Shown here piece by piece: positions 16,607-63,104 of a DNA stretch of 64,000 nucleotides. Where the stretch lies: assembly GCA_024280215.1 (NCBI GenBank), contig JAJRQO010000021.1, forward strand, positions 27,827-91,826. Reading direction: 5' to 3'. The DNA comes from Candidatus Zixiibacteriota bacterium (lineage in GTDB: Bacteria; Zixibacteria; MSB-5A5; GN15; FEB-12). The notes beneath the pieces were generated by a model, which saw only the letters and a list, made by a program, of their open reading frames with translations, searched no databases and was not told where the DNA came from. Both the position numbers and the translations under genes were made by a program. The stretch's first letter is position 1; each line of letters opens with the position of its first letter.

Positions 16607-16619
16607 GTTACAGGTATAG

Positions 16620-35239: not shown

Positions 35240-35811
35240 AATTTACGACTTCCTCGTTGAGTCAACTCTTCCCCTTTAGCACACATCGGACAATCAGCGA
35301 CTTCCCAACTGTCAGCATCAACTGAAGTTAAAGCATAAAACGGATAATCAAATTTTACTTTACCGTTAGATCTATCAAGCATAAGTCCAATCCCGACAAT
35401 TTCCGCTTCATATTTATTACATAATTCAATCACTTCAAAAATCGAACGTCCCGTAGTCAAGACATCATCAACGATTACAACTTTTTGACCTTTTTCAAGT
35501 GAGAAACCACGTTTAAAAACCCGTCCTCCCTCATCACCTGCTTCAGCATAAATTGATTCAATCCCCATATAGCGAGCAACATCATAAGCTATAATAATTC
35601 CACCAGTAGTAGGTCCGACAATAGTTACAGGGTTTGCCTCTTTAAATTGGTTCGCCATCTGCTCACACATTTTTGTACAAATTTCAGGCTGTTTTAAAAG
35701 CGTAAATTTTTCATAATAAACATCTGAATGTCTGCCAGAAGTTAGTTTAAAATGTCCTGTCAATAAGGCATTGGAATCTTTAAATAATTGTAAAATTTCA
35801 TTTGAGTTCAT
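35236..35811 (-). CDS. pyrE: Orotate phosphoribosyltransferase
   Basis: 191 aa. PRPP-binding motif VVIVDDVLTTGRS. Confidence 0.9.
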   Translation of the reverse strand: MNSNEILQLFKDSNALLTGHFKLTSGRHSDVYYEKFTLLKQPEICTKMCEQMANQFKEANPVTIVGPTTGGIIIAYDVARYMGIESIYAEAGDEGGRVFKRGFSLEKGQKVVIVDDVLTTGRSIFEVIELCNKYEAEIVGIGLMLDRSNGKVKFDYPFYALTSVDADSWEVADCPMCAKGEELTQRGSRKF

Positions 35812-36179
35812 TTTTCCTCCGAAAATATTGCTACCGCTGCAGCAACTGATTTTTCATGGGTTATAGAAATAAAACATGTTGCCTTCACTTTGTCCAAAAT
35901 TTCATCAGATAAACAAAGTTCAGGTTGACCAGTCGAGTCGTTTACTATTTGAATCTCTGGCAATGTTGGTTTGTCTGTAAGAAATTTCCCTAAGGCTTTT
36001 ATGACTGCTTCTTTAGCAGCAAACCGACCAGAGAGAAATTGTGCTTTATCTTTTCGTTTTTCATACTGTTGAATTTCAAGGGAACCTAAAATACGATTAA
36101 CAAACCGTTCTCCGTATTTATCAACATCTGCTTTGATTCTACTGATTTCTACAACATCTAATCCGATTGATTTTATCAT
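35808..36179 (-). CDS. acpS: Holo-[acyl-carrier-protein] synthase
   Basis: 123 aa. GLDVVEISRI ... FAAKEAVIKA. Confidence 0.9.
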   Translation of the reverse strand: MIKSIGLDVVEISRIKADVDKYGERFVNRILGSLEIQQYEKRKDKAQFLSGRFAAKEAVIKALGKFLTDKPTLPEIQIVNDSTGQPELCLSDEILDKVKATCFISITHEKSVAAAVAIFSEEK

Positions 36180-36249
36180 CTTTTATCAACTTTTATCGTT
36201 CTATCAATTCAATATTCTTTTTGTTAAAATTATAACTTTTATTCAAACC

Positions 36250-36324
36250 TTTCGACTCCGCTAAGATTGACTTGAATAAGAATAACTATAATCTGTCAAA
36301 CTGAGCGGAGTCGAAGTATGCTCA
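36250..36324 (+). repeat. Hairpin repeat, family 1, full copy
   Basis: ttcgactccgctaag ... ctgagcggagtcgaagtatgctc. Homologous along its length to 11531-11606. Confidence 0.85.
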
Positions 36325-36437
36325 AAGTATAGATATTCTTCCAACAACTCCGCATCCAACATATAATAAAAACTACAATTTATCAATAGATAGAATTAAA
36401 AGTTGCAATTGTAACAAAATAATTATATTTTATAACA

Positions 36438-36607
36438 GGAGAGAATGATGCAATTTGAAATTCTCTAACACTTAATTAATGAAGGTCGCCTCTTTTGTGG
36501 TGCGTTCTCGCCGTAATCCTTTTGGTAGCGAAACTATAAACATAAAAGTGACTTTAAATCCTTTACCTTATTCGTAAGGGAGTTTTTCAAATAGCAGACC
36601 TCTCTCC
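36438..36607 (+). ncRNA. Candidate structured small RNA (6S-like long closing helix; identity unverified)
   Basis: A sigma70-like promoter lies upstream (TTGCAA 36403-36408, then TATTTT at a 17-nt spacer or TATATT at 15 nt). The 5' GGAGAGA..AUUUGAAA can pair with the 3' UUUCAAAU..UCUCUCC. There is an internal CCUUA-UUCG-UAAGG tetraloop hairpin. An intrinsic terminator follows immediately, and no plus-strand gene lies downstream. Confidence 0.4.
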
Positions 36608-36610
36608 AAT

Positions 36611-36640
36611 AAAAAAACCCGCTTTTAGCGGGTTTTTTGT
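36611..36640. terminator. Bidirectional intrinsic terminator (rho on minus, candidate sRNA on plus)
   Basis: aaaaaaaaCCCGCttttaGCGGGtttttt: an A-run and a T-run flank a GC stem. Confidence 0.8.
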
Positions 36641-36659
36641 AGATATCGTCTAAATCTGA

Positions 36660-37913
36660 TTAGTCTTTCATAGAAGCTAAGAAACGCTTATTATTTTTTG
36701 TTTTCTTAACTCTATCTTGTAAGAACTCCATCGCCTCTATCGGATTCATTTCAGCTAAGAATTTTCGTAAAATCCAGATTTTACTAAGGGTTTCCTCTTC
36801 TAAGAGCAATTCTTCTTTACGAGTCGAAGAACGGTTGATATCAATTGCTGGATACACTCGTCTATCGGCTAAGCGACGGTCTAAAACAAGCTCCATATTA
36901 CCAGTACCTTTGAACTCTTCAAAAATCACTTCGTCCATACGTGAACCAGTTTCAATAAGAGCAGTTGCTATAATTGTCAAAGAGCCACCCTCTTCAATAT
37001 TACGAGCAGCACCAAAGAAACGTTTTGGTTTATGTAATGCGTTAGAATCAACACCTCCAGATAGAATCTTTCCAGAATGAGGAACGACCGAGTTATGAGC
37101 TCGAGCCAAACGAGTAATTGAATCAAGCAAAATCACAACATCTTTGCCACGTTCAGTCAAACGTTTTGATTTCTCTAATACCATATTGGCAACTTGCACA
37201 TGTCGTTCAGCGGGTTCATCAAATGTCGATGAAACCACTTCACCATTTACAGAGCGCTTCATATCGGTCACTTCTTCAGGACGTTCATCGATAAGAAGTA
37301 CAATCATAATTACTTCAGGATGATTAGTTGTAATCGCCTGTGCTATTTTTTGAAGCACGATAGTTTTACCTGCTTTAGGAGGAGAAGTAATCAAGGCTCT
37401 CTGCCCTTTTCCAATTGGGCTCATTAAGTCAATAATACGAGTAGTCAATTCTTCAGAATTTGTCTCCAAAACAAACATATCATCTGGGTATAGTGGAGTC
37501 AGATTATCAAACATCGTTTTATGCTTAGATGCATTGGGATGGTCATAGGTAACCGCTTCAATTTTCAATAAAGCAAAATAACGTTCATTATCTTTTGGAG
37601 GTCGTACTTGTCCAGAGATAATATCACCTGTCTTTAAATCGAACCGTTTAATTTGTGATGGGGAGACATAGATATCATCTTGACCAGGTAAATAGTTGTA
37701 TCCTGGGGAACGCAAAAATCCGTATCCCTCTTCTAAAATCTCTAAAACTCCTTCTGCCAAAATCACTGATTCACCTGCAGAAGATTGTTCCATAATTTTA
37801 TAAATCAATTCCGATTTGCGTAATCCAGAGACACCAGGGATATCCATACCCTCGGCAATTTTTAGCAAATCAGCAATTGTTTTAGTCTTTAAATCAGCTA
37901 ACTCAGCAGCCAT
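36660..37913 (-). CDS. rho: Transcription termination factor Rho
   Basis: 417 aa. Rho N-terminal domain, RNA-binding OB fold, and Walker A PPKAGKT. Confidence 0.95.
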
Positions 37914-37943
37914 TTCTTATCCTTTATATTCATTTGTAAAATA

Positions 37944-38297
37944 TTATTCATCTTTTAATTCTTCAACTGGGGCATCACCCCATAATTTTTCTAATGCATA
38001 AAATGAGCGTACTGGCTCTTTGAAAATATGAACCACAACGTCAACATAATCGAGTAAAACCCAACTTCCCGTATCCATCCCTTCACGATGATAAGGCTTC
38101 ATACCATCATCAAGTAACTCATCATAAATCGCGTTGCTAATCGCTTTGACATGCACATCGGCATCACCAGAGACAATGACAAAATAATCACAAATTGATG
38201 AAATCTCATCCATCTTGAGTATTTTGACATCAAAACCTCTTTTTCCCAACGCTATTTGCCCTGCTTTACGGGCTGTTTCTAATGCTAATTTTGCCAC
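37944..38297 (-). CDS. rsfS: Ribosomal silencing factor RsfS (iojap-like)
   Basis: 117 aa. DYFVIVSG ... WVLLDY..VVVHIF ... YALEKLW. Confidence 0.9.
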   Translation of the reverse strand: MAKLALETARKAGQIALGKRGFDVKILKMDEISSICDYFVIVSGDADVHVKAISNAIYDELLDDGMKPYHREGMDTGSWVLLDYVDVVVHIFKEPVRSFYALEKLWGDAPVEELKDE

Positions 38298-38304
38298 AAT
38301 ATTT

Positions 38305-38790
38305 TTACTCTAACTCCTTTGATTGTACAAGTAGTGTTTCGATAACAGAGTCTTTTCCAATTACAATTGTTGCATTGAGATGATTTTTATTCTGCTTTAA
38401 CTCACTATATTGTATTTTTTCGCTATCTATATGTAAGATCTCAGCTAACTCTTTTATAGCATGAGAATCTTTTATTCTACTAATTATAAATGTTTCCTTA
38501 GAGGGTTGCATTGTAAATCGTGTTAGTTTTACAATATCGATTTCCATATCAGGCAATTCTAATGACTTTAAATATACCGAAAGGCTTTCTTCTGTATTAT
38601 TCTCTGCTCCAGCATTCAATATTTCTATTCGTAAATTATAAGTCGGTCCAGTCGTTTCTTTAGCTATACCTTGAGTGAGCTGAACTGAAAATGAGACAAT
38701 AAATATCAAGACAATAATCGCAGTAGCAATTAAACAGAATTCAAAGAATCGCCTCATGTGAGGTTTTTTAGTATGTTTTTTTTTGGACAC
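38305..38790 (-). CDS. Membrane-anchored hypothetical protein (possible LytR_C-like domain)
   Basis: 161 aa. A basic N-terminus, one TM helix, then a soluble domain. An A9 tract lies in codons 3-5. The family assignment is weak. Confidence 0.55.
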   Translation of the reverse strand: MSKKKHTKKPHMRRFFEFCLIATAIIVLIFIVSFSVQLTQGIAKETTGPTYNLRIEILNAGAENNTEESLSVYLKSLELPDMEIDIVKLTRFTMQPSKETFIISRIKDSHAIKELAEILHIDSEKIQYSELKQNKNHLNATIVIGKDSVIETLLVQSKELE

Positions 38791-38887
38791 CAGTTTTAAC
38801 TTAATTTATTTTTTTGTTTGGAAATTTTTTCAAAGTGAAATTATGCGGGAGGGATTAAATATTTTTCTTCTTTCTAACAGTCCTTTC

Positions 38888-39367
38888 TTATCGACGCAGA
38901 AATGAATCATGTAAACGGCTACCAGGAGAATAATATGGAGTGCCGTATAAGTTATTACCTTTATATGATTGCATACTAATAGATACTTTAAAATTTTCAG
39001 ATGGATGATAGTCTAACATAAAGCTCGGTAAAATATCAGTCTTATTATTTGCATCGCCCCACATAGCGGTTGGGTCATGAGCAACGCCAACATTTAAGGC
39101 GAGAGACAATTTCGATGAAATTTCATAGAACATTGATGTATTCCAGATGCCTAATGAATTTGAACTTGTTCCACCAGAAAAATAATTAACAGAGTAACTA
39201 TGTGACCATTTTATCCGTGAAAAATCTAACAATGAAAATGGAGTTGCTGCAGGTTTCAATACATGAGAAGGGGAGTTTTGAACTCTATCAATAGATGCAT
39301 TTTCTACAAGCTGTGCTTGTGTTGTCACAGCAGATAAAAATAAAATCATAATTAGAATTTTTTTCAT
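38888..39367 (-). CDS. Small secreted/outer-membrane protein, unknown function
   Basis: 159 aa. Signal peptide MKKILIMILFLSAVTTQAQ and an alternating beta-strand-like pattern. Confidence 0.6.
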   Translation of the reverse strand: MKKILIMILFLSAVTTQAQLVENASIDRVQNSPSHVLKPAATPFSLLDFSRIKWSHSYSVNYFSGGTSSNSLGIWNTSMFYEISSKLSLALNVGVAHDPTAMWGDANNKTDILPSFMLDYHPSENFKVSISMQSYKGNNLYGTPYYSPGSRLHDSFLRR

Positions 39368-39540
39368 AATTTGAATACCCTTTAACTCATTAAACCTTAT
39401 GGAAGACTCAAAGTCTTCTCTTTAAATGTAGTCGTTTTCAACAACAAGGTCAATAAAAAACCTCTAATTCTTTTATCGACCGAACTTATTCATTCTTTTA
39501 TACTTATAACGTTTAAAACGACCAAAAAGATTAATAAAAA

Positions 39541-40278
39541 TTACATTCTATCTTTAAATTTTTCTGATAAATAAGCTAATTGCTCAACAGAATTGATACC
39601 CTCGCCCTCATCTGGGTCATCAGCGACCACAATCGAGACAGGCATATCATTGTCGTACATAACTTTAACACAATCAGTCAGATAATACTCACCTTGAGAA
39701 TTATCCGTTCCGATCTTTGTGAGCGATTCAAAAAGAACAGAATTTTCAAAACAAAATGTCCCTGTATTGATCTCTGTCACTTTGAGTTGCTCTTCGGTGG
39801 CATCTTTTGCTTCAACTATTTCCTGCAAATTCGACGTCCCCGTTTCACGTATAATCCGCCCATACCCTTTTGGCTCTTCAATAATTGCTGACAAACAAGA
39901 TGCCTTAGCATCGGTCTGTTCTAATACATCGATCAATCGTTGGATTGTCCCCGAACTCAAAAATGGTACATCACCTAATGCAATTAGCGTGTTTCCATCA
40001 AAATCAGCCAGTGCATCTTTTGCCATCATAACCGCATGACCAGTTCCATTCTGCTCATGTTGCCAGACAAATTCAACTGGGTACGATGCTAATGATTGTT
40101 CGACCATTTCCCCTTTGAATCCGATAACGACTATAATTTTATCAAAATGAAGTTTTTGAAGTGTCTCAACTACATACTGAATCATCGGCTTACCCTTGAT
40201 TTCGTGCAAAACCTTTGGTAAATCCGATTTCATACGAGTGCCTTTTCCAGCAGCTAAAATGACTGCGGCTTTTTTCAT
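39541..40278 (-). CDS. GlmU-like sugar-1-phosphate uridylyltransferase, N-terminal domain only
   Basis: 245 aa. AAVILAAGKGTRMKSDLPKVLH matches the GlmU N-terminus. The protein ends at the inter-domain linker and has no hexapeptide-repeat acetyltransferase domain. Confidence 0.75.
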   Translation of the reverse strand: MKKAAVILAAGKGTRMKSDLPKVLHEIKGKPMIQYVVETLQKLHFDKIIVVIGFKGEMVEQSLASYPVEFVWQHEQNGTGHAVMMAKDALADFDGNTLIALGDVPFLSSGTIQRLIDVLEQTDAKASCLSAIIEEPKGYGRIIRETGTSNLQEIVEAKDATEEQLKVTEINTGTFCFENSVLFESLTKIGTDNSQGEYYLTDCVKVMYDNDMPVSIVVADDPDEGEGINSVEQLAYLSEKFKDRM

Positions 40279-40305
40279 ACTAAAAATCCCCTGTCTATTT
40301 ATATT

Positions 40306-40659
40306 TTATAATGAAATTTCTTTATTGTCGGCGTCAACATGCACAAATGATGGCTTGAAACCTTCAAGTTCATCTGTGTGAAATTGACCATACGAGATAA
40401 TAATAATCAAATCGCCTTTACATCCCTTACGAGCAGCAGCACCATTAAGGGCAATCGTACCTGAACCAGCGGGTGCTTCAATCACATATGTTTCCAACCG
40501 TTCGCCATTATTGATATTGACAATAGCGACTTTTTCAAACTCAACCAAATTGGCTGCTTCCATCAAAGACTTATCAATAGATACCGAACCGACATAATTA
40601 AGGTCAGCATCGGTAATTGTACAGCGATGTATTTTTGATTTACAGACAGTTATTAACAT
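40306..40659 (-). CDS. panD: Aspartate 1-decarboxylase
   Basis: 117 aa. KSKIHRCTITDADLNYVGSVSID contains the Gly-Ser self-processing site. Confidence 0.95.
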   Translation of the reverse strand: MLITVCKSKIHRCTITDADLNYVGSVSIDKSLMEAANLVEFEKVAIVNINNGERLETYVIEAPAGSGTIALNGAAARKGCKGDLIIIISYGQFHTDELEGFKPSFVHVDADNKEISL

Positions 40660-40820
40660 AATTTCAATCTCATATTTTCTTTATTCAGCGGTGAATATAG
40701 TCAAATCTTCTCAAATGGCAAGTTGAATAATCATCATTATCTTTTTTTCTTCTTCTACTTATAACCATTTATTGCTCAAAATGTTGCAGAAAATCGGGAT
40801 TTTATCGTACACGTTAGGTT

Positions 40821-40854
40821 GGGTCCTGATTTCGCTTCAGCGAAATTGTGACCC
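40821..40854. repeat. Nested hairpin GGGTC-ctg-ATTTCGC-ttca-GCGAAAT-tgt-GACCC
   Basis: Read directly. Lies just downstream of the NUDIX gene stop. No U-tract on either strand. Confidence 0.5.
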
Positions 40855-40862
40855 GACCATCA

Positions 40863-41342
40863 TTAGGCTTTTATCTGAACCCAGTTGCGAGCAGGAAATA
40901 TCTCAAGCTCCTCAGAAATATTATCAAGTGCTGTCGAAAGGTTTTTCCAACTGACCCGATGTTTTGCCTTAGAAACCGATAGCCACCGAAACTCAGAATT
41001 CTCATCTGATAACACAACCTTGGCATCATCTTCTACCACGGCAATAATCAGCGGAAGTATCCAAATCGAGTCATATTCAGGTTCATAAAATTGAATAAGA
41101 TGTTCGGTCGCCCAAAGCGATTTTGCCGTTAATTGTGTCTCTTCATTTAATTCACGCACCGCAACCTGTGCAACCGTTTCTTCCCCTTGTTTACCACCCG
41201 TCATAAATCCCCAAAAGCCACCGTATGATTCTTTTTCAGCTCTTTTGAGAATCAAGTATTGCCAACCATCGTAAGTTTTTTTGACGACGAGAACATTAAC
41301 CCCTGGAGATTCTATTTTAATATGTGTCGACTTTGCATTCAT
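40863..41342 (-). CDS. NUDIX hydrolase
   Basis: 159 aa. Nudix box GGKQGEETVAQVAVRELNEETQL. Confidence 0.85.
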   Translation of the reverse strand: MNAKSTHIKIESPGVNVLVVKKTYDGWQYLILKRAEKESYGGFWGFMTGGKQGEETVAQVAVRELNEETQLTAKSLWATEHLIQFYEPEYDSIWILPLIIAVVEDDAKVVLSDENSEFRWLSVSKAKHRVSWKNLSTALDNISEELEIFPARNWVQIKA

Positions 41343-41429
41343 TTAATAATCCTAAAAATCTTTCTATTATCTTTACGGTGGATATGTAACAAAAGATTGA
41401 AAAAAGTCAATATATATTTATTGTAATAG

Positions 41430-41760
41430 AATCCTTGTAGGTCGGTGTTCCGATTCAAAAGAATATAATTGCGAGAAACCCGACAACTTTTGAATATATC
41501 TTACTTCTCCCCGAACTCCTCTCCGCCAAAGGCGGAGTCCAGTCTCTTATAATAAGTCATACTGAGCTTGTCGAAGTATGCTCCAACCACCAGTCATTGC
41601 GAGGCAACTTGTTGCCGTGGCAATCTCATCTTTGTCATACCTGTCATCCCAGCGTAGGATGGGAACGAGTCTTTTCATAATTGTAAAAGACCCGACATCT
41701 TTTGCATATACCATTCCCTCTCCCGTACTCCTTTCCTGCGGAGGCAGGAATCCAGACTTT
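41430..41760. repeat. Array of different short hairpin repeats (left flank of the membrane-protein gene)
   Basis: Includes a family 1 half-copy (41556-41585), the family 2 hairpin gtcattgcgaggcaacttgttgccgtggcaatctc (41593-41627), gtcatcccagcgtaggatgggaac, and the family 3 hairpin ctttcctgcggaggcaggaatccag (41731-41755). The track ORF 41547-41858 is an artefact of these repeats. Confidence 0.85.
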
Positions 41761-41944
41761 TTATAGTTGACAATCAATTCAATATATTCGTTTATAAAAT
41801 ATAAGATTATATTTAATAATGGAGAGGAACTACTCGGGGCACCTGTGTAATAAGTCAAATAGGGGAAAGTAAATTGATTTTAGTATAACATTTTCGTATC
41901 GTTATATAGAGTTTTACGAAACTTCAACTCTTATTGGAGCATAT

Positions 41945-42847
41945 ATGATTGAAACATTGTTTATTATATCAAATATAATATTTTTCTTTAGTATTCTAAA
42001 GATAGAATTTTCAAAGATACTTTATTATCAACTACTAATTTTTGTTTGGTCGATATTAAATATCGGAGGGTTATATCTTTCAATTAATGCTATAGATGCC
42101 TCAAATCCATTTATATTGTTCTATTCTATTAAACTGCCATTATATGGATGTATCCTTTTTGTAATTGCAATATTCGTTTTGGGTTCTATAAATAAACACA
42201 AAATATTACGACTATTGAGTGTTTATTTTATAGTTGGAGGGTTTATGCTCTTAAGATATTTGCCCGGCATGGGCTCCCTTGTAGAACAAGACGTTGAACC
42301 TCTATTAAGTATTCCTTATATGTTTTCATTAGTAATTCCATTTATAATATGTCTCTTAGTACCTATGGGATTTACTAATATACTACAATTAGGTTACTTT
42401 AAAAAAAAATTCCTACCAAAAATTAAAACAGCGAATGGCAATATAAAATATATTGTCATTTGTGCCTTGTTGTATTTTACTATTCATATTTTCTTTAACT
42501 ACTTAAAAGAAGATTTTTTGATATATTTCAATTATAATCAATCAATTTTAAAGCAATTTATGCATGTTTCGCTAATTACATTTTATCTTATTGTTTTAGA
42601 TCATTTTGTGTTTATAGGACTAGCAAAATATATTATGGACGAAATATTTGAAGGAGATGATACAACTTACTATGAAATAATATTATATGCATTTATATAT
42701 GTGGGATTCCATTTTGCTGATTATAATGCCTATGCAATTATTGAAACATTTTTGTTTGCTCTAATTTATGGGTATCTTTACTTAAAAACTAAAACTTTGT
42801 TTTATGGAATTATTTTAGCTTCACTTACTTTGATATTTTTTGGTTAA
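41945..42847 (+). CDS. Polytopic membrane protein, unknown family (weak CPBP/Abi-like resemblance)
   Basis: 300 aa, about 8 hydrophobic helices, very AT-rich. It is the only plus-strand gene between 35236 and 53561. The C-terminal region (DEIFEG ... GFHF) only loosely recalls CPBP motifs. Contains an A9 tract at 42400-42408. Confidence 0.6.
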   Translation: MIETLFIISNIIFFFSILKIEFSKILYYQLLIFVWSILNIGGLYLSINAIDASNPFILFYSIKLPLYGCILFVIAIFVLGSINKHKILRLLSVYFIVGGFMLLRYLPGMGSLVEQDVEPLLSIPYMFSLVIPFIICLLVPMGFTNILQLGYFKKKFLPKIKTANGNIKYIVICALLYFTIHIFFNYLKEDFLIYFNYNQSILKQFMHVSLITFYLIVLDHFVFIGLAKYIMDEIFEGDDTTYYEIILYAFIYVGFHFADYNAYAIIETFLFALIYGYLYLKTKTLFYGIILASLTLIFFG

Positions 42848-42897
42848 TAATTTATTTTTTTACTAATTATATTCATATTAAACTTTTAAAAAATTAT

Positions 42898-43257
42898 TGT
42901 GGACGACAGATGTCCTCGTCTGCCCAACACACATTCACTACAACTCCTCACCACTTTCAAATCACACCTGCACCAATATGAACCCGATTATTTTCACAAT
43001 ACTAAGACCACAATTCCCCGAGACAGGACACCTATATCTGTCTCTTGGAGTGGAGGAAGTAAAAATAAAACCACGTTAATGACCGAAACAAACCAATTTT
43101 GCTATAACACAAAGCATGCTATATGATTACAACAAAAAATTGCTTTCTTACTGGATTCCTGCTTTCGCAGGAAAGGAGTTCGGAAGGTTGTGTTTGTTTA
43201 AAAGATGAGATTGCCACGACAACAAGTCACAATGAGACAAGTTGTCTCGCAATGACA
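42898..43257. repeat. Array of short hairpin repeats (right flank of the membrane-protein gene)
   Basis: Includes gagacag..ctgtctc (43019-43043), family 3 ctggattcctgctttcgcaggaaag (43151-43175) and family 2 in reverse orientation (43207-43255). The order and orientation mirror the left array. Confidence 0.85.
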
Positions 43258-43261
43258 GAAC

Positions 43262-44107
43262 CTACATCAATTTCGCATTGTCAATAAGGCGGACATTATG
43301 GAGCCTGACCGCAAGCGAACAGATTGTATTTTTCTTGATAATTTTAGTAGGAGCAAGAGTTTCAAAATCTGTAAATGCAATGTAATCAATCTTGGCAGTT
43401 TTGCATGTCGCCTTAATAACAGTTTTCATCTCTTTTTTTATTAGCTTACAATCTTTGATATTTTCTTTGACCATCTGCTTCGCTTTTTTTAAAGCATGAG
43501 ACAAACAGAGTGCTTCGATTCGTTGTGATGCGTCGAAATATTTATTACGTGAAGACATCGCCAAGCCATCTTTTTCTCGAACAGTCGGAGCTATAAGATA
43601 TTTGATAGGATAGTTCAAATCAGTCGTCATTTTTTTAAGCACCATCGCCTGTTGGAAATCTTTCATTCCAAAAACGACCACGTCAGGACGGGTTATATTA
43701 AAAAGTTTTGCAACAATAGTTGTAACACCCCTAAAATGCAAAGGGCGAGATTTTCCCTCAAGCGTTTGTGTTAGCGACTCAACATTGACGTATGTTTCAT
43801 AACCATCGGGATATATATCTTCAGGCTTCGGTACAAAGACAATCGTCCCACCCGCATCTTTAATTTTTCGAATATCCCCTTTCTCATCACGAGGATACTT
43901 TGACAGATCTTCCCCTTCGGCAAACTGGGTCGGATTGACAAAAATCGTCGTAATGACAACATTTGATTTTTTCAAGGTAGTCTTAATCAGCGAAAGATGC
44001 CCGTCATGCAAAAACCCCATAGTCGGAACCAGTCCGATAGTGAGACCATCAGCGACAAGCTGTCGAGAAAGCGATTGCATTTTTTTTATAGAGCGGATTA
44101 TTTTCAT
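43262..44107 (-). CDS. panC: Pantoate--beta-alanine ligase
   Basis: 281 aa. GLVPTMGFLHDGHLSLI HIGH-type motif. Confidence 0.95.
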   Translation of the reverse strand: MKIIRSIKKMQSLSRQLVADGLTIGLVPTMGFLHDGHLSLIKTTLKKSNVVITTIFVNPTQFAEGEDLSKYPRDEKGDIRKIKDAGGTIVFVPKPEDIYPDGYETYVNVESLTQTLEGKSRPLHFRGVTTIVAKLFNITRPDVVVFGMKDFQQAMVLKKMTTDLNYPIKYLIAPTVREKDGLAMSSRNKYFDASQRIEALCLSHALKKAKQMVKENIKDCKLIKKEMKTVIKATCKTAKIDYIAFTDFETLAPTKIIKKNTICSLAVRLHNVRLIDNAKLM

Positions 44108-44134
44108 GTGGTAATTGAATTTCCTAAATTAATT

Positions 44135-44166
44135 GGAGCATACTTCGACAAGCTCAGCATGACTGG
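44135..44166 (-). repeat. Hairpin repeat, family 1, half-copy (reverse orientation)
   Basis: The reverse complement ccagtcatgctgagcttgtcgaagtatgctcc matches 41556-41585. Confidence 0.8.
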
Positions 44167-44168
44167 TT

Positions 44169-45251
44169 TCAATCTTCTTGTGGTTCTTCATCTTCGATTT
44201 TGTAGCCGTCTTTGATATAGCGAATAACGGCATAACCTCTCGCCTGCCCAACAGCTATAATCGTCAGAAAATATCCGATTATCGAAGCAAAGATGACAAA
44301 AATCATAAATGCCATCAAATATTCAGGCATCGTATGAGATGAATACTTGGCATATTTGGTGAGGGAAAAAGAAAAATCTACTGATGGGAAAAGTTGGAAG
44401 GTATGAAATGTTACATCTGATTTTAATGGCAACAACGACAACGATTTTTTTATCATCGTTTTCACCTCTTCACCACCGCTTAAAGATGTACTCCATGCGA
44501 TAAACTGCACCGAACGGTAACAGACATAGGCATAGACAAACGATGAAACTTTCCCGGTAACTAATGCCAATAACGTATAGCCACCCCACCGAAATGGTTG
44601 CCGTATAATAGTCGCAAATGTTTCCAGTATAGATTGGAAGGCTTCACCCTTTTTCTCAGCAGCAGTAACTGTCGGAAGCAAAATGATAGAGATAAGAAAA
44701 ACCACAATAATAAAAAGTGTCAGAATTGCGATTAAGAAATTTGGAATCACAAAAAGAAGTGCGTAAATCCATTCACCGATATATGGTATTCTCGCCACCA
44801 AACCAATCAGAGTAAATAGGAGTATTATAAATCCAATAAAACTAATAATCCCAAGCTCGGCTAACAGAATTTGTTTAAATCGTCTGAATCCTTTTCTAAT
44901 GGCATGATGTGGTTTCATGAATTTATTCCCACGAATCGCTTCGATTTCTAAAATCGAAACCGCATAAAAACCGAGCATCAACATAAGTAGTGAAATTATC
45001 GCACCGACAACAAAAACAATTTGCGCTACAATGCTCGCAAAGAATAATTTATAGAATGGGAAAAATGTATAGACCGAAAAAATCGTTTTTATTTTCTCTC
45101 CATTGATAGAAAATGTAGCATAGGTAAAAATATTATAAAGAGCTAATGACAATAACAGAAAAAATGTCATGACCAATATTTTTTTAGCAGACAACGCTTC
45201 AATAGGTGCTTTGAAAACATCTACGAAATTATAATGTAATTTTCTTTCCAT
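44169..45251 (-). CDS. Polytopic membrane protein, unknown function
   Basis: 360 aa, about 8 hydrophobic helices, and an acidic C-terminal tail. Confidence 0.6.
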   Translation of the reverse strand: MERKLHYNFVDVFKAPIEALSAKKILVMTFFLLLSLALYNIFTYATFSINGEKIKTIFSVYTFFPFYKLFFASIVAQIVFVVGAIISLLMLMLGFYAVSILEIEAIRGNKFMKPHHAIRKGFRRFKQILLAELGIISFIGFIILLFTLIGLVARIPYIGEWIYALLFVIPNFLIAILTLFIIVVFLISIILLPTVTAAEKKGEAFQSILETFATIIRQPFRWGGYTLLALVTGKVSSFVYAYVCYRSVQFIAWSTSLSGGEEVKTMIKKSLSLLPLKSDVTFHTFQLFPSVDFSFSLTKYAKYSSHTMPEYLMAFMIFVIFASIIGYFLTIIAVGQARGYAVIRYIKDGYKIEDEEPQED

Positions 45252-45328
45252 ATTTTCAATCTCTCTTTTTGGCTTCCTAAAGTCAAGTTAAAGATACAGC
45301 TCTTATACAGGGGAATTTGCTTTTGGTT

Positions 45329-46327
45329 CTACACATGGAATTCGACAATATCTTTATAGCCAAGGACAAAATCTGGTTGAACTTTCTGCCCGTCAAATTT
45401 CCCCTCACCCCATACTTTGGCAAATTTTAACTTTTCGGCTATATCCCTATGGAGAGCATAAGCGGCGTCAGAGACAGTACCATTCACAGGGATGATAATC
45501 GGGTCTTTATAGTCGGGGTCATGACCAATCGGCTTGGTATAAATCCGCATTTTACCCGTCGCTTCAAAAAGAACAACCTGCAGTTGCACAAGCGACTCTT
45601 CATCTAAAATAGATGTAGCCACAATTTTAAAATCTGGAAACAGTTTGGCAAGTTCAACCTGTTTGGTTCCATCTTCATCTTCAAATGATTTATGGGCACA
45701 GATAACTGTATTTTTATAAGAGAATTTTGGGTCGTCCGCTTTTTCTAAATTATCTTTTTTTAGTAGGACTCTTTTTTCTTCTAAAGCATTTAATATAAAT
45801 TCGACATCAGCAACCATTGTCTCCGATGCTAAGTCAGCAACAAGAAGGACAATATCAGCATTGCGAATAAGCGAATTCATGTATGACTCAAAGAGGTCAG
45901 GAGAAATCGGCGGAGTATCTATCAGTTGCAGTTGTACGGTATCATTGAGTGCCATACCAGTCAATGGTTCTCGTGTAGAATATGGATAATCAGCAACTAA
46001 AGGCTTAGCATGCGTCATTGCATCGACAAGTGAAGATTTGCCCGCATTGGGAGCTCCGATAATAATAATCTGCGCGGCACCCTCTTTTTCAACATGGTCA
46101 TGTGTCGGTGCATTCTTAGCTCCATGCACTTTTTCACCACCACCAGCAATAAGTTTTTTGAGTTTGGAGATTTTAGTTTTCATCTCCGCTTGGAGTTTGT
46201 ACGTCCCTTTATGCTTTGGCATAATACGATGCAGCTCTTCAGCCATGCGAAGTTTTTCGTTGATATCTTGTTCTTCTTTAAAAGCTCGTTCAAGCTCGTA
46301 GTATTGAGGAGGTAGATTTGCAGGCAT
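45329..46327 (-). CDS. OBG-HflX-like GTPase with C-terminal TGS domain (DRG/Rbg-type architecture)
   Basis: 332 aa. N-terminal helical region with KGTYKLQAEMKTKISKLKK, G1 GAPNAGKSS, G3 DTPP, and a TGS-like C-terminus. Confidence 0.7.
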   Translation of the reverse strand: MPANLPPQYYELERAFKEEQDINEKLRMAEELHRIMPKHKGTYKLQAEMKTKISKLKKLIAGGGEKVHGAKNAPTHDHVEKEGAAQIIIIGAPNAGKSSLVDAMTHAKPLVADYPYSTREPLTGMALNDTVQLQLIDTPPISPDLFESYMNSLIRNADIVLLVADLASETMVADVEFILNALEEKRVLLKKDNLEKADDPKFSYKNTVICAHKSFEDEDGTKQVELAKLFPDFKIVATSILDEESLVQLQVVLFEATGKMRIYTKPIGHDPDYKDPIIIPVNGTVSDAAYALHRDIAEKLKFAKVWGEGKFDGQKVQPDFVLGYKDIVEFHV

Positions 46328-46328
46328 C

Positions 46329-47486
46329 TTATTTTTTATTCTTTTTGATAATAGTTTTTATTTGGCTACAGATTATGTCGACATCTTTTAGAGTAAGTGA
46401 CGGATATAACGGAAGCGTCACTATTCGTTTCCATGCTTGGGCAGTTTGTGGATACTCTTCAGGGTTCATCTCAAAAGCGGCTTGGTAGTAAGTGAATTCA
46501 AAAATTGGTTTATAATGTACACCACACTCTACTCCGAGTGCATCCATCTCTTTGATAAACTCATCACGTTCGATATTTAAACTTTTGAGATTAAGTTTTA
46601 TTATAAACAAATGCCACCCGTGGGTGGAGTCATCTGATATTTTTGGAAGGGTAATCTGTTCAGAATGGTCTGAAAGATTTTCTATATACCGTTCTACGAT
46701 TTTAACACGCTTTGTTTGTTCTTTTTCATACACCGTCGCCTGCCCTAAACCAACAGCCGCATGAAGTTCCGACATATTTGCTTTGATTCCCGTAGTGGCA
46801 ACATCGTATTCCCAGCTATTTTTTTCTTTACGTTCGGATGCCGACGATGTCATTCCATGTCGTGAAAGAATTTTGACAGCATCTGCAATCATCTTATGCT
46901 GAGTCAAGACAATGCCCCCCTCTCCACAGATAAGGTTTTTGGTCGCATGGAATGAAATAACCGAGGCGTCAACATGATGAACGATTGACTTTCCTTTGTA
47001 AGATGAACCTATCGCATGGGCGGAATCTGAAATAAGTGGAAGTTTATATTCAGTGCAAATTTTATTTATCGCATCATAGTTGCATGGTAAGCCAGCAATA
47101 TCAACAGTGATGATAGCTTTTGTGTTTATACGTACTTTCCGATACACATCTTCGGGATCAATATTTAAACTACTATCAATATCAGCAAAAACGGGTGTCG
47201 CCCCCACAGCAATAATTGCCTCGATGGTTGCGACAAAAGTAAACGGGGTCGTGATAACCTCGTCACCATATCCAATTCCTAATGCCATAAGGACCAATTG
47301 AAGCCCATCGGTTGCCGAGCTTACTGAAACTCCATAGGGAGAATCTGTCAGAGATAAAATTTTCTTTTCAAAATCTTTAGTCATTTTTCCAGGTGACAAC
47401 CAACCAGTCTCAAGCACTTTGGTTGCATTGCTGATTGCCTGTTTGGAGAGTTGTATGTCAAAGAGAGGGATTTTACTGTTTTTCAT
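46329..47486 (-). CDS. DegT/DnrJ/EryC1/StrS-family sugar aminotransferase
   Basis: 385 aa. PLP-lysine context SFHATKNL. Confidence 0.85.
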   Translation of the reverse strand: MKNSKIPLFDIQLSKQAISNATKVLETGWLSPGKMTKDFEKKILSLTDSPYGVSVSSATDGLQLVLMALGIGYGDEVITTPFTFVATIEAIIAVGATPVFADIDSSLNIDPEDVYRKVRINTKAIITVDIAGLPCNYDAINKICTEYKLPLISDSAHAIGSSYKGKSIVHHVDASVISFHATKNLICGEGGIVLTQHKMIADAVKILSRHGMTSSASERKEKNSWEYDVATTGIKANMSELHAAVGLGQATVYEKEQTKRVKIVERYIENLSDHSEQITLPKISDDSTHGWHLFIIKLNLKSLNIERDEFIKEMDALGVECGVHYKPIFEFTYYQAAFEMNPEEYPQTAQAWKRIVTLPLYPSLTLKDVDIICSQIKTIIKKNKK

Positions 47487-49020
47487 TTTTTTTCACAAAT
47501 TCAAAAAATTGTTGTATCAATTCATTCTGCCTTAAAATATACAAACTCAACAAATAAATAACAACTAAAACGAACCCTGAACCAATGAGATACAAAACTA
47601 TATTGAGATATGATTGCTCAAAAGATACTGAGATTAAATATTTATCTATCATATAAAGCAAGTACCCCGAAGAGATTCCAGCAAAAATCAAACTTACAAA
47701 TGTCGCCAGAAATTGTTTCTTATCTTGCATCTTTGTTTTTAGCATCAGAAAGAGAATCATCGCAACTGCAAAGAAAAGATGTGCTGTTGCGGTAGCAACT
47801 GAAATGCCGGCGTATCCAAAAGTATTTGACAAAAGTGTATTCAAAACAAATTTCAAGGCAAACGCACCCACGACAAAAAGAAGTACAGTCCTCCCCCATC
47901 CTCCTGAATAACATGCCCGCATCGAGGTTGAGATAACAAAAAGTGAGACAATCGAAATTACATAAGGGCGTAGAGTTGTCGCGGTCAATTCGACCGAGTG
48001 AGCGTCAAATTGTCCTCGGTGAAACAGAAGATAAACTATTTGCTCGGCATGTAAAAAGAAAAATGTTGCAATTGGAATCGCAATAAAAACCGCCGAAAGA
48101 ATTGCTTTTTTATAGAATGCTTGAAAACGATGTAGTTGGTCGGTCTCAGATGATTCAGAAAACAATGGAAAAACAACCGCACCAATGGCAAACCCTATAA
48201 TAGAATCTGGCAATTGCACGATAACCTGCGAATAGTTCAATGCTGAAATCACTCCCTCGCCAAATGATGGAGCGATGAAACGATCAAGCAGAAAATATGA
48301 ACGGTTTATCAGTTCGATAAGAACAACAACACCAGCGGTTTTAAATAGTGCTTGAGAATGTTCGGTTATAAATTTTGGTGTATAGTTATTAAATGGTTTA
48401 TACAACATAATTTTTGAAAGTAAAAATAGATTTTGGAAGAACAACCCTGCTATGACACCGATAATAATTGCACCGACTGAAAACGATTCATATAAAAAGT
48501 AAATTGAAGCTATGCAAAACAGATTGTAAGCGATAAATCCACCAGCTGGAAAGATGAATATTTTTTTGACATTTAAAAATGCCCGCATGAACGCTTCGGT
48601 TGTACCAAGTAAAATCATCACCGATGAAAGACGACTATACAACACAACTTGTGAAAATTGTTCAGTTATTAATTGCGAACCCCAAATTTTCATTATATAA
48701 GGAGAACCAAAAATTATAATAAGCATCAACACAAAAGATGACAATAATATAAGATTTAACGGTGGGTAAATTGCATTCCAATTTGTATCGTTGCCCAACT
48801 CTTGTTGTTTGGATAAAAAAGGAACAAAAAAGTATATCGAGGCAAAATTAATAACTCCGTACGCTAAGGCTGGAAGCATAACAGCAATAAGATATATATC
48901 ATAGTCAGCTGTTGTACCAAAGATGTCAGCAATAACCATTTCACGAACAAATCCAAGTAGTCGGGAGATGAGAATTATGATTGCTACGGAAAATATTGTT
49001 TTAGAAATTCGTGAGGACAT
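47473..49020 (-). CDS. murJ: Lipid II flippase MurJ/MviN family
   Basis: 515 aa, about 14 TM helices. N-terminal SRLLGFVREMVIADIFG is typical of MurJ. Confidence 0.85.
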   Translation of the reverse strand: MSSRISKTIFSVAIIILISRLLGFVREMVIADIFGTTADYDIYLIAVMLPALAYGVINFASIYFFVPFLSKQQELGNDTNWNAIYPPLNLILLSSFVLMLIIIFGSPYIMKIWGSQLITEQFSQVVLYSRLSSVMILLGTTEAFMRAFLNVKKIFIFPAGGFIAYNLFCIASIYFLYESFSVGAIIIGVIAGLFFQNLFLLSKIMLYKPFNNYTPKFITEHSQALFKTAGVVVLIELINRSYFLLDRFIAPSFGEGVISALNYSQVIVQLPDSIIGFAIGAVVFPLFSESSETDQLHRFQAFYKKAILSAVFIAIPIATFFFLHAEQIVYLLFHRGQFDAHSVELTATTLRPYVISIVSLFVISTSMRACYSGGWGRTVLLFVVGAFALKFVLNTLLSNTFGYAGISVATATAHLFFAVAMILFLMLKTKMQDKKQFLATFVSLIFAGISSGYLLYMIDKYLISVSFEQSYLNIVLYLIGSGFVLVVIYLLSLYILRQNELIQQFFEFVKKNEKQ

Positions 49021-49047
49021 ATATGTTCAAATCATTTTTAAATTAAT

Positions 49048-49079
49048 AAGAAAAAAGGAGTCTAAAAAAAGACTCCTTT
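49048..49079 (-). terminator. Rho-independent terminator between the second DegT gene and murJ
   Basis: Stem aaggagtc / gactcctt, followed by a T-run on the minus strand. Confidence 0.7.
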
Positions 49080-49097
49080 CATAGTTGAAACTATAAC

Positions 49098-50204
49098 CTA
49101 CGAGACCGCATTTTTTACCGCTTCAATAACAATCTGTTGTTCATCTGGTGTCATTTCAGGATAAATTGGAATGGACAAAACGGTGTCTGCCGCTTGGTTG
49201 GTCATTGGTAAATCCTCAGGTTTATAGCCTAAGTCAGCAAAACATTCCTGCTTATGAAATGGTACTGGATAGTAAATATCAGAACCAATTTTAGCTTCTC
49301 TTAGTTTTGCGGCTACTTCATCACGGTTCTCAATTGCAATGGTGTACTGATTATAAATATGAAAATCAGAATAGTCCATAACTTTTGGCGTTGTGATAGC
49401 AGAGGTGTCGGCAAAAGCATCGTCATAAATTTTTGCATGTTCGATTCTTTTTTCTGACCATTTTTGCAGATGAGGCATCTTAACAAGAAGTATCGCAGCT
49501 TGAATAGACGCTAAGCGAGAATTAAAACCGATAATTTTATGATAGTATTTTGGCTTAGCACCATGATTACGAAGGATGGTCAGAAGTTCGACATTTTCAT
49601 CAATGTTAGTTGTAATGATTCCACCATCACCACCCGCTCCAAGATTTTTGGACGGGTAAAATGAAAAGCAACCGTAGTCGCCCATCGAACCAGCAGCTTT
49701 ACCTTTATACTTCGCACCAATTGCCTGAGCCGCATCTTCAATAACTTTGAGGTTATGCTTTTTGGCAATTTCTAAAATCGGATCCATATCAGCAACCTGC
49801 CCAAAAAGATGCACAGGGATAATTGCTTTTGTTTTATCTGTGATAGCAGCTTCTATAAGTTTTGGGTCGATATTATAAGAATCTTTTTCGATGTCGATAA
49901 AAACTGGTGTTGCACCAAGACGTGAGATTGTTCCCGCTGTCGCAAAGAATGAAAAATCAGTTGTAATCACTTCATCACCAGCTCTAACGCCAGCGGCAAA
50001 AAGAGCAAGAAGAAGTGCATCAGTTCCCGAAGCAACACCACGTGAGTATGCCACACCAGAAAGAGTTGCAATTTGTTTTTCAAGTTCGGTTACTTCTGGT
50101 CCTAATATAAACCAGCCATGATCTAATACATTTAAAACCGCTTTGTTCATATCTTCTTTGAGATATGCATACTGGCGGGATAGATCTAAAAGAGGTACTG
50201 ACAT
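49098..50204 (-). CDS. DegT/DnrJ/EryC1/StrS-family sugar aminotransferase
   Basis: 368 aa. PLP-lysine context SFYPSKNLGA. Confidence 0.9.
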   Translation of the reverse strand: MSVPLLDLSRQYAYLKEDMNKAVLNVLDHGWFILGPEVTELEKQIATLSGVAYSRGVASGTDALLLALFAAGVRAGDEVITTDFSFFATAGTISRLGATPVFIDIEKDSYNIDPKLIEAAITDKTKAIIPVHLFGQVADMDPILEIAKKHNLKVIEDAAQAIGAKYKGKAAGSMGDYGCFSFYPSKNLGAGGDGGIITTNIDENVELLTILRNHGAKPKYYHKIIGFNSRLASIQAAILLVKMPHLQKWSEKRIEHAKIYDDAFADTSAITTPKVMDYSDFHIYNQYTIAIENRDEVAAKLREAKIGSDIYYPVPFHKQECFADLGYKPEDLPMTNQAADTVLSIPIYPEMTPDEQQIVIEAVKNAVS

Positions 50205-50218
50205 TTTATTTTAATCCT

Positions 50219-50980
50219 TTATTCGTCATTCCAACCCTGGTTTTCCAGAAGTTGATCTTGTGGTACATCACGTAAAACTTTTGCTGGCATTCCAGCCACT
50301 ATTTTTTTTGATGGGACATCTCTTGAAACTAAGGCACCTGCGGCAACCAAAGAATCTTCTTCGATAGTTTTCCCCGGCAAAATTGTTGAATTAACCCCGA
50401 TTCGAGCACCTTTCTCAATGATGACACCCTTGAAATTTTCAAATCGCTCTTTGGTTCTTCCAACAAAATTATCATTGGAAGTAGCCACACACGGTGCGAC
50501 AAAAACTCTATCAGCGACCTCTGAGTAAGCAGTAATATAGACATTCGTTTCGAGCTTGACATATTTACCGATATTACAGAAATTTTCTATTGCAACACCA
50601 CGTCCGACAATAGTTTTTTTGCCAACCGTAACATTTTCTCTTACCGTTGCTAAGTCAGCGACCAATACTTTTTCGCCGATTGTACATCCACGATAAATAA
50701 TAACAGAGGTTCCAATTATACAATCTGAAGCAATCGTACATGGCGGTAGTTCTTCATCTTTGGTCACAGCAGAGTTTGCTGCTTTCATAGGGCGTTTACC
50801 AATGACAGTATTGTCGTCGATTCGAACATTGTTTCCAATGGTACTGTTTTCATGAATAACAACATGATGTCCGATTTGGCATCCTGCTCCAATTGTCACA
50901 TCTTTACATATGACACAAAATTCACCAAGTGAACTGTCTGAAGATATTTGCGCCGAACTATCTATATGAGATGTTGCCAT
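50219..50980 (-). CDS. Hexapeptide-repeat (left-handed beta-helix) sugar N-acetyltransferase
   Basis: 253 aa with repeated [LIV]-G-x-x-x-x hexads throughout. Adjacent to the aminotransferase. Confidence 0.8.
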   Translation of the reverse strand: MATSHIDSSAQISSDSSLGEFCVICKDVTIGAGCQIGHHVVIHENSTIGNNVRIDDNTVIGKRPMKAANSAVTKDEELPPCTIASDCIIGTSVIIYRGCTIGEKVLVADLATVRENVTVGKKTIVGRGVAIENFCNIGKYVKLETNVYITAYSEVADRVFVAPCVATSNDNFVGRTKERFENFKGVIIEKGARIGVNSTILPGKTIEEDSLVAAGALVSRDVPSKKIVAGMPAKVLRDVPQDQLLENQGWNDE

Positions 50981-51030
50981 AAACCTATCCTTTATAATTT
51001 CTTCATTATACTATTACAAAAATAAATTGT

Positions 51031-62996: not shown

Positions 62997-63104
62997 GTTC
63001 TGTCAGTTCCTGATTTTGATTCATCAAAATTGTGAACTGACAGAGTCACTATATGTCAGGTGTATCATGCTAAAGCATGAAAGCACCCGACACAACTATT
63101 TAAT
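62997..63104 (-). repeat. Two-hairpin structured repeat, copy 3 (reverse orientation)
   Basis: The reverse complement is ttaaatagttgtgtcgggtgctttcatgctttagcatgatacacctgaca...ctgtcagttcacaattttgatgaatcaaaatcaggaactgacagaac. Hairpin A is nearly identical to copies 1 and 2. The hairpin B outer stem is conserved, and its interior is replaced by a different palindrome. Confidence 0.85.

Follow-up and report, generated by a model that had tools for sequence, protein, structure and literature searches.

We analysed a stretch of 64,000 nucleotides from a Candidatus Zixiibacteriota bacterium (assembly GCA_024280215.1, contig JAJRQO010000021.1, positions 27,827 to 91,826; the window), in which a lone plus-strand open reading frame (ORF), ORF300 (41945-42847), lies between panC and a NUDIX hydrolase gene and is bracketed by hairpin-forming repeat modules. 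The DNA from 41426 to 43256 is probably an accessory insert at a hypervariable gap of the conserved vitamin-B5 cluster memb360-panC-NUDIX-panD (memb360 encoding a 360-aa membrane protein) and holds ORF300 between mosaic arrays of single-stranded DNA hairpins; it is probably neither a transposon nor an invertible switch. The insert is absent in relatives, the closest relative L001 carries different cargo at the same site, and the repeat modules are individually placed and structurally conserved. We regard the locus as an instance, in Zixibacteria, of a known pattern, in which Ssn-related and REP-like arrays (NIME-like) surround an accessory envelope gene at a variable site of the minimal-mobile-element type.

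A lineage-specific insert between panC and NUDIX

Pfam searches identified the genes around ORF300 as panC (pantoate-beta-alanine ligase; 43262-44107, minus strand; Pantoate_ligase, E 3.5e-96), a NUDIX hydrolase gene (40863-41342, minus strand; NUDIX, E 1.3e-12) that is kept in relatives as the downstream neighbour of panC, and panD (Asp_decarbox, E 3.7e-48), in agreement with the initial annotation, which had placed the gene between panC and NUDIX-panD. The best relatives of the panC protein are found in Candidatus Zixibacteria metagenome-assembled genomes, with 81% identity in L001, and the gene order in these relatives is memb360, panC, NUDIX, panD, GlmU-like, omp. The gap between panC and NUDIX measures 10-154 bp in L003, L004, L005, L007, L008, L013, and L014, and 1,919 bp in the window, where it holds a 1.83-kb insert. 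Since panC, NUDIX and panD are contiguous in relatives, the earlier claim that ORF300 interrupts the panC-panD cluster is borne out, and the gene together with its flanks is a lineage-specific insertion. In a blastn comparison, the sole part of 41343-43261 that matched the closest relative was a promoter-like conserved stretch upstream of NUDIX (41381-41423, minus strand; 81% over 43 nt to L001:15646-15688), which sets the left limit of the insert at about 41426 and the lineage-specific DNA at about 41426 to 43256.

In L001, the same gap carries a different insert of 4.9 kb with genes for proteins of 454 and 805 aa and an array of hairpin modules between them. In L004, an insert of 5.4 kb occupies the next gap, between NUDIX and panD, and opens with hairpin modules, among them a decayed NTS and a C-like unit (see below). 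Hairpin arrays are present in all of these inserts, and the differing inserts in the window, L001 and L004 indicate that this region of the cluster is a site of recurrent cargo gain, always with hairpin arrays. As in a minimal mobile element, conserved flanks enclose alternative cargo (ORF300 here, two genes in L001) or are empty (seven relatives). Such elements were reportedly described by Saunders and Snyder in 2002. The panC, ORF300 and memb360 proteins, which come from one contig of 179,522 bp, are singletons in a collection of 15 billion proteins, in which conspecific contigs therefore do not occur.

The cargo of L001 (10847-15725) comprises a 454-aa membrane protein that looks pentapeptide-repeat-like by eye and an 805-aa protein that is repeat-rich and has an apparent signal peptide. 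The insert of L004 (11336-16701) contains a 208-aa ORF, dockerin-like by eye, and several overlapping ORFs that look like pieces of one large, broken gene. A further hairpin (GGTTGGGTC...GATTTCGCTTCAGCGAAATT...GACCCGACC) is located at 40836-40862 of the window, in the panD-NUDIX spacer immediately downstream of NUDIX.

Mirrored hairpin modules around ORF300

The flanks of ORF300 had been described as inverted repeats of each other with mirrored modules, and the repeat search returned three such inverted pairs, 89-97% complementary. The outermost, B/B' (41555-41586 and 44133-44164; 32 nt, 97%), is the extra mirrored module that had been noted at 41556 and 44135. C and C' pair over 27 nt (41607-41633 and 43201-43227, 96%) and again over 20 nt (41593-41612 and 43237-43256, 95%), the inner stem of C' carrying about 16 extra nt relative to C, while E and E' pair over 36 nt (41720-41755 and 43151-43186, 89%) and differ in their loops as first reported, GGAG in E and GAAA in E'. 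The number of chance matches expected per module in the dinucleotide-shuffled window was 0, and no further C or E modules were found elsewhere in the 64 kb. Because the non-palindromic flanks of the modules are asymmetric, the inverted orientation is real and does not simply follow from palindromy. The members of each mirrored pair are copies of a single module, set with their heads outward.

Module B (GTCATACTGAGCTTGTCGAAGTATGC; plus strand) has a GTCAT head and is NTSvar-like, and its inverted partner B' (minus strand) is located 4 nt past the stop codon of memb360. Module C (41593-41633, plus strand) consists of GTCATTGCGAG, an inner hairpin GGCAAC-TT-GTTGCC and GTGGCAATCTCATCTTT; its inverted copy C' (43199-43256, minus strand) begins 5 nt past the stop codon of panC, and TCTTTT follows its tail. 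Unit E (41677-41755, plus strand) ends in a hairpin, ACTCCTTTCCTGC-GGAG-GCAGGAATCCAG (41727-41755), resembling the NTS, a 28-nt oriented hairpin of which the dRS3 repeats of Neisseria are part (CGTCATTCCCGCGMAVGCGGGAATCYRG; PMC11893778, Nat Commun 2025;16:2388), and E' (43151-43186) is its inverted counterpart on the minus strand. Folded as single-stranded DNA, C, C', E, E', and a further unit, A, form hairpins of -7 to -8.6 kcal/mol with z-scores of -1.8 to -3.9 (C', -8.6 kcal/mol, z -2.8; E', -7.1 kcal/mol, z -3.8).

Three other plus-strand units of the left array have no partner on the right, namely a half REP with a GTAG head (GTAGGTCGGTGTTCCGA; 41437-41453), unit A (41465-41542), ending in an E-type hairpin CTCCGCC-AAA-GGCGGAG followed by TCCAG (-8.1 kcal/mol, z -3.9), and module D (41634-41670), GTCATACC followed by GTCATCCCAGCGTAGGATGGGAAC, a GTCAT-headed hairpin that is weak (-4.8 kcal/mol). 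Positions 41465-41533 recur as a direct repeat, D1, at 41677-41745 (71%), and the head of the half REP (GTAGGTCGG..TTCCGA) is also found at L004:11343, with the full palindrome at 2270-2296 of the window. On the 3' side of ORF300, between 42899 and 43044, decayed REP-like hairpins were recognised by eye, GTGGACGACAGATGTCCTCGTCTGCCC (42899-42925) and GAGACAG-N11-CTGTCTC (43020-43044), and these resemble, likewise by eye, GTGGGCGGCAGACGCCCTCGTCTGCCCC of L082 and GGCAGACCTATGTGTCTGCC of L001. The repeats belong to cross-phylum families, B, C and D being SRM-related with GTCAT heads, A and E NTS-like with a variant head, and the GTAG-headed copies decayed REPs. Two ORFs lie entirely over the hairpin array, 41547-41858 (minus strand, 103 aa) and 41578-41766 (plus strand, 62 aa); the first was discounted as spurious, and both are of the type of spurious 'hypothetical proteins' that repeats yield in automatic annotation.

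Similarity between the two flanks is confined to separate modules of 27-57 nt. C and E are 93 nt apart on the left and 18 nt apart on the right, and the intervening DNA is unrelated. Module B' lies beyond panC, in the memb360-panC spacer, and the orthologous spacer of L001 is without the module, indicating that modules insert individually and that B' arrived independently of ORF300. A C-tail fragment (AAAAGATGAGATTGCCA) precedes an E-like module in L001, the reverse of the order in the right flank of the window. The hairpin families to which the modules belong are ubiquitous and appear elsewhere in variable order and orientation. No target-site duplication was found at the C heads (CACCA vs AGAAC), no contiguous terminal inverted repeats of a transposon or miniature inverted-repeat transposable element (MITE) were found at the insert ends, and the left edge of the inserted DNA lies outside both C and B. 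Neither multiple copies nor the same ends around the same cargo were seen in the window or at the ORF300 homologues of L085 and L082. That the repeats are the terminal inverted repeats of one discrete passenger-carrying element, as had been proposed, is not supported.

The initial annotation had also suggested an invertible segment, that is, phase variation by a site-specific recombinase flipping 41.6-43.3 kb, and inverted repeats of 27-36 nt flanking one opposite-strand gene are indeed what such a switch would show. We consider it very improbable, since no transposase, integrase, invertase or recombinase gene was found among the Pfam-annotated neighbours within +/-10 kb of the locus (PRTase, ACPS, rho, RsfS, GlmU-like, panD, NUDIX, panC, GTPase, DegT, MurJ, hexapeptide transferase, Wzz, and polysaccharide exporter), since the repeats enclose the complete gene together with its promoter-like region, so that inversion would have no obvious output, and since the repeats are generic and dispersed and form three nested pairs, one spanning panC. 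The promoter-like hexamers, including TTGACA at 41767-41772, lie in the AT-rich 5' region of ORF300 (41756-41944, plus strand) and are consensus matches only, not evidence of function; promoter and terminator scans of the locus performed no better than shuffles. The genes from 35.2 to 53.6 kb are all of housekeeping or envelope type, and the long ORFs of 35236-53561 are all on the minus strand with the exception of ORF300, as had been stated. The locus gave no Rfam match, neither at gathering thresholds nor at E<=5, and no tRNA genes that could serve as integration sites were found in the window.

Related repeats are present in other parts of the window. Doublets of the B family (CTTCGACTCCGCTCAG ... 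GTCATGCTGAGCGGAGTCGAAGTATG), with inverted arms 24 nt apart, occur at 11529-11606 and 36248-36324; one adjoins the gene of a bacterial small SRP RNA (11335-11435, minus strand; 67 bits), the only Rfam family in the 64-kb window, and the other is upstream of rho. REP-like palindromes with GTAG heads (GTAGGGGCGTTACATGTAACGCCCCTAC; GTAGGTCGGAACCCCTGTGGTTCCGAC) are located within 2090-2296, between convergent genes. These doublets and palindromes indicate that the genome carries dispersed hairpin repeats, of which the arrays in the panC-NUDIX gap are the densest. A different element of about 100 nt with two hairpins is present in direct copies at 13177-13279 and 14356-14457 (94-100% identical, 1178-1179 bp apart), which flank a low-G+C gene resembling Mrr_cat restriction endonucleases (13309-14295), and in a third, partial and inverted copy at 63028-63100. 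The gene and its repeats look like another small cassette or an insertion of the MITE type. The ORF at 12833-13084, adjacent to this element, spans only the first 65 of 203 MarC positions.

ORF300, a divergent CPBP/Rce1-like membrane protein

ORF300 had been called very AT-rich, and with 25.1% G+C against a mean of 36.2% it is the lowest of the 57 genes of the window (z -2.9). The 300-aa protein has 59% hydrophobic residues (z +3.4), G+C at the first and second codon positions is low (GC1 and GC2, z -2.2), and G+C at the third position (GC3) of 0.196 ranks 4 of 57 (z -1.4), low without being an outlier. The low G+C of ORF300 is thus due in large part to its amino-acid composition. Its homologues are mostly about 5-10 points below their own contigs (one about 1), although the L082 homologue has a truly low GC3, and the G+C offset is largely a property of the family. 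Hence, of the suggestion that the gene is compositionally foreign, the atypical G+C stands, whereas the case for a recent foreign origin from G+C alone is weakened.

A word-based search returned ORF300 only, whereas an exhaustive HMMER search found about 33 full-length homologues of about 300 aa with 22-35% identity (alignment A1). The CPBP/Abi family had been put forward as a candidate, and the Rce1-like profile PF02517 matches 12 of 23 family members (best E 7.3e-9), although ORF300 itself stays below the cut-off (19.9 bits, cut-off 22.4) and covers only profile positions 38-86. Like the CPBP/Rce1-like (Abi) proteases and bacteriocin-immunity types of this family, ORF300 is polytopic and helical, and its C-terminal third aligns with the Rce1-like core (...GFH...G..YLYLKT.SL.YGI...). 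It differs from them in missing motif residues, and no bacteriocin or partner gene is found nearby. Inspection of A1 by eye for the catalytic motifs EExxxR, FxxxH and HxxxN showed that one Glu (YYEII) and the motif-2 His of GFHF are kept, whereas motif 1 lacks its second Glu and its Arg, and motif 3 its His/Asn (LASL); a few homologues retain LHSL. The AlphaFold model is all-helical with a pLDDT of 88, and its best match in the PDB is Rce1, which is not significant (E 0.87). Searching the ORF300 sequence against solved structures gave only designed transmembrane proteins (E about 0.2), and NCBIfam gave no match. ORF300 is probably a CPBP/Rce1-like protein that is catalytically degenerate and no longer a protease, possibly acting in immunity or substrate binding.

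Homologues of ORF300 do not share a conserved neighbourhood. The L085 homologue, the only one with fully readable flanks, lies among kinase and lactamase genes and has no modules on either side, whereas that of L082, located between uvrC and xseA, has a hairpin array (780 bp) only on its 3' side; the flanks in contigs L081, L084, and L087 are too short to judge for repeats. The gene can thus occur without the repeats, a finding that the initial annotation would have counted against its reading and that holds in part. The closest relative of ORF300 is a truncated remnant at L101:140-470, 60-69% identical over the C-terminal 85 aa or so, which lies directly downstream of a REP hairpin (GGCAGAACC...GGTTCTGCC). 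Another 300-aa ORF on L082 was ruled out as a paralogue (hhalign probability 0.1).

Repeat families, known systems and significance

Hairpins related to the NTS, named SRM, occur across phyla (PMC11893778). In Neisseria, ssnA, a small gene with GIY-YIG as its single domain, is flanked by these repeats, and its product cleaves them in single-stranded form only; the repeats concentrate near non-essential membrane-protein genes and reduce integration of transforming DNA, and the arrangement NTS-ssnA-NTS resembles an insertion sequence (PMC11893778). The modules of the window are likewise oriented, imperfect palindromes of 28-57 nt in intergenic positions that combine a GTCAT head with a stem-loop and a tail ATC(Y), and they share the repeat-gene-repeat layout clustered around a non-essential membrane-protein gene. 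Aligned by hand with the published consensus (PMC11893778), module E shares 23 of 28 positions with the NTS, and of its five mismatches two form a compensatory stem pair; module B resembles NTSvar (GTCATACT...AGTAT). Taking the structural definition of an SRM (a 20-50-nt hairpin with GTCAT head and ATC tail), the heads are present in B, C, C', and D, and hairpins form in C, C', E, and E'; the stem and tail of E, E' and A are those of the NTS, their head being CTCCT. In contrast to the NTS, module C contains an additional internal loop and its inner hairpin varies, and no ssn gene is visible in the 64-kb window.

The C family was sought in IMG/VR and metagenome contigs with the pattern GTCATTGCGAG-N(8-38)-GGCAATCTCATC. 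Members (GTCATTGCGAG-hairpin-GGCAATCTC) were found in 13 IMG/VR viral contigs and at least 120 metagenome contigs of 30-66% G+C. Among the matches listed, 219 distinct modules with 210 different inner segments share one conserved outer helix, ATTGC/GCAAT, which covaries as ATCGC/GCGAT and ACTGC/GCAGT, and 177 of the 219 are more stable than controls with shuffled inner segments. Covariation and fold stability together indicate that the hairpins of the C family are constrained in structure. Single-domain GIY-YIG genes of about 95 aa (PF01541, E 1e-14 to 1e-16) lie directly between C modules in four of the 133 C-selected loci (L115, L145, L149, and L217), as ssnA does between its repeats; the modules are heads outward in L145 and L217, and the downstream module of L145 overlaps the stop codon. 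The spatial link to single-domain GIY-YIG genes is thus found in other organisms and for the C family only, not for B and E, and the C family is an Ssn-type repeat class missed by the published SRM consensus. The B-family core, CTGAGC-N3-5-TCGAAG with covarying flanking stems, is present in many unrelated contigs and at 11577 and 36295 of the window, and versions of the E stem with a GTCAT head are found in L089 and L110. Along viral-classed IMG/VR contigs (L095/L098, L096, and L090), C modules recur many times, with up to about ten direct copies between genes in L095, head-outward doublets every 2 kb or so in L096, and one module inside a 352-aa ORF in L090.

Adjacent C modules less than 150 nt apart are arranged as 42 direct, 37 heads-outward and 5 heads-inward pairs, and those 600-3000 nt apart as 21 direct, 2 heads-outward (one being the present locus) and 7 heads-inward pairs. 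The heads-outward form is the usual doublet form of the C family and is seen also around two ssn genes, but genes are not generally bracketed in this way. C and C' share an inner core, CAACTTGT, that no other C module in any examined locus has; in each pair, the nearest relative of either window copy is the other one, which points to local copying. We read the nested head-outward pairs as local, orientation-biased duplication of single modules. The only other gene-scale head-outward C pair among the matches listed, L137:428-2424, encloses ORFs that by eye resemble a small lipoprotein, a BrnT/BrnA toxin-antitoxin pair and an ICMT membrane protein.

The pattern of neisserial NIME and minimal mobile elements is the same as at this locus (PMC1797815). 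As in NIME (dRS3/RS arrays), whose cargo is often of the cell envelope, mosaic arrays flank variable genes, and as in minimal mobile elements (PMC1797815), panC and NUDIX enclose different cargo at the same site in different genomes. Unlike the neisserial cases, the window comes from a different phylum and is AT-rich, and the two cargo states and the empty state are spread over species-level distances instead of strains. The REP/BIME/REPIN systems with their RAYT genes share with the window palindromes just past stop codons, inverted doublets, mosaic clusters and GTAG-headed REP fragments. L082 has a 167-aa RAYT-like (Y1_Tnp) gene at 16140-16760, flanked by inverted REPs (GTAGGGCAGAACCCTTTAGCGGTTCTGCC / GGCAGAACCACTAAAGGGTTCTGCCCTAC; GTAGGGCAGAACC REPs), and a RAYT-like Y1 transposase is partially present on the Zixibacteria contig L011. 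No RAYT (Y1_Tnp) gene was found in the window, however, and the mirrored modules have GTCAT or CTCCT heads, GTAG being restricted to 41437-41453 and 2190-2296. The presence of GTAG-headed REPs and RAYT-like genes beside the other modules indicates that the arrays mix two kinds of hairpin repeats. L082 is a 488-kb contig with both the RAYT-like gene and the ORF300 homologue, and its hairpin arrays also adjoin a gene that looks tRNA-like by eye, at about 15.1 kb.

Several observations weigh against our interpretation of the locus. The published SRM consensus, HGTCWYN(0-2)YYVSBRHN(0-5)WNVSBRGN(0-2)RNCYNB, has 0 matches on both strands of the window (shuffle mean 0.06); the same consensus finds canonical NTS in L082, L068, and L094, that of L082 within the array adjoining the ORF300 homologue. 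E, E' and A have a CTCCT head without the CGTCA of the NTS, and SsnA of Neisseria needs GTCA for cleavage. In single-stranded DNA folding, B forms a weak or marginal hairpin and B' none. Genes for GIY-YIG proteins and Y1 transposases are absent in the 64-kb window and the panC-region loci of Zixibacteria, with the partial Y1 gene at the end of L011 as the sole exception. GIY-YIG searches by regular expressions and with a YhbQ query had no match in the window or in the loci that they covered, and a hidden Markov model built from the four metagenome GIY-YIG genes had none in the window or the Zixibacteria loci. Head-outward C pairs at gene scale are rare (2/30, one being this locus), and we estimate the probability that three nested head-outward pairs arise by chance at roughly 0.02-0.1. 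Moreover, the mechanism and all functional statements given below rest on comparison with Neisseria.

The rarity of gene-scale head-outward pairs leaves room for an origin as a unit, in which the segment from C head to C head (41593-43256) would be a non-autonomous cassette, a derivative of SRM-ssn-SRM with ORF300 in place of the nuclease, moved as a whole in trans. In favour, C and C' have the head-outward arrangement that C modules also show at the GIY-YIG genes of L145 and L217, and on the right the segment ends directly at the stop codon of panC. ORF300, whose G+C is the lowest of the window, lies on the opposite strand and is missing from relatives; the L137 pair encloses several accessory-looking genes, and NTS-ssnA-NTS is insertion-sequence-like (PMC11893778). 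However, there is no target-site duplication, the inserted DNA, with unit A and module B, reaches about 170 nt beyond C on the left, and no second copy exists in the window. The ORF300 homologues occur in unrelated contexts with no repeats (L085) or a one-sided array (L082), only 2 of 30 gene-scale C pairs are head-outward, and Ssn units are not known to transpose. We therefore regard such a cassette as quite unlikely. The broader proposition, that the C-bounded segment is a passenger-carrying SRM-ssn-SRM derivative and that Ssn-type GIY-YIG nucleases and their hairpin repeats form a mobile-element system that operates via single-strand hairpins and is able to capture and move cargo, we hold to be distinctly improbable; if true, the locus would be the first such cargo cassette, and in an uncultured phylum.

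The arrays could also act mainly as RNA, as terminators, mRNA-stabilising 3' hairpins or insulators, and be kept because the insertion split an operon and so made transcription convergent between ORF300 and panC and divergent between NUDIX and ORF300. E. coli REPs stabilise upstream mRNA. The positions of C' (5 nt past the panC stop) and B' (4 nt past the memb360 stop), both forward for those transcripts, and the TCTTTT after the C' hairpin would suit such a role. On the other hand, the terminator scan finds none at these sites, the B-family copies at 11577 and 36295 are antisense to the neighbouring genes, no plus-strand gene precedes the left array (B, C, D, E), and Ssn-type repeats of Neisseria are bound as DNA, not RNA (PMC11893778). 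A mainly RNA-level function is thus unlikely, although it can coexist with an accessory insert at a hypervariable gap.

If the locus is such an insert, the modules would multiply singly and locally, since the copies of each pair are each other's nearest relatives. By analogy with NIME and minimal mobile elements of Neisseria, the arrays may supply short portable homology for the gain, swap or loss of the genes they flank. If the genome encodes an Ssn-type nuclease, the head-outward repeats could allow either incoming strand to be cut 5' of the gene, and such cutting would limit gene replacement by transformation, as in the NTS-gene-NTS model (PMC11893778).

When repeats are members of dispersed hairpin families, their mirrored placement around a lone gene is in itself no sign of a transposon or a switch. 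The very widespread C class (GTCATTGCGAG-hairpin-GGCAATCTC) offers a lead for cataloguing pairs of Ssn nucleases and their targets, and it may help to explain spurious 'hypothetical proteins' and assembly breaks in metagenome-assembled genomes. In summary, a pattern first worked out in Neisseria, oriented hairpin arrays around accessory envelope genes that occupy variable positions flanked by conserved genes, is also found in an AT-rich genome of the uncultured Zixibacteria.

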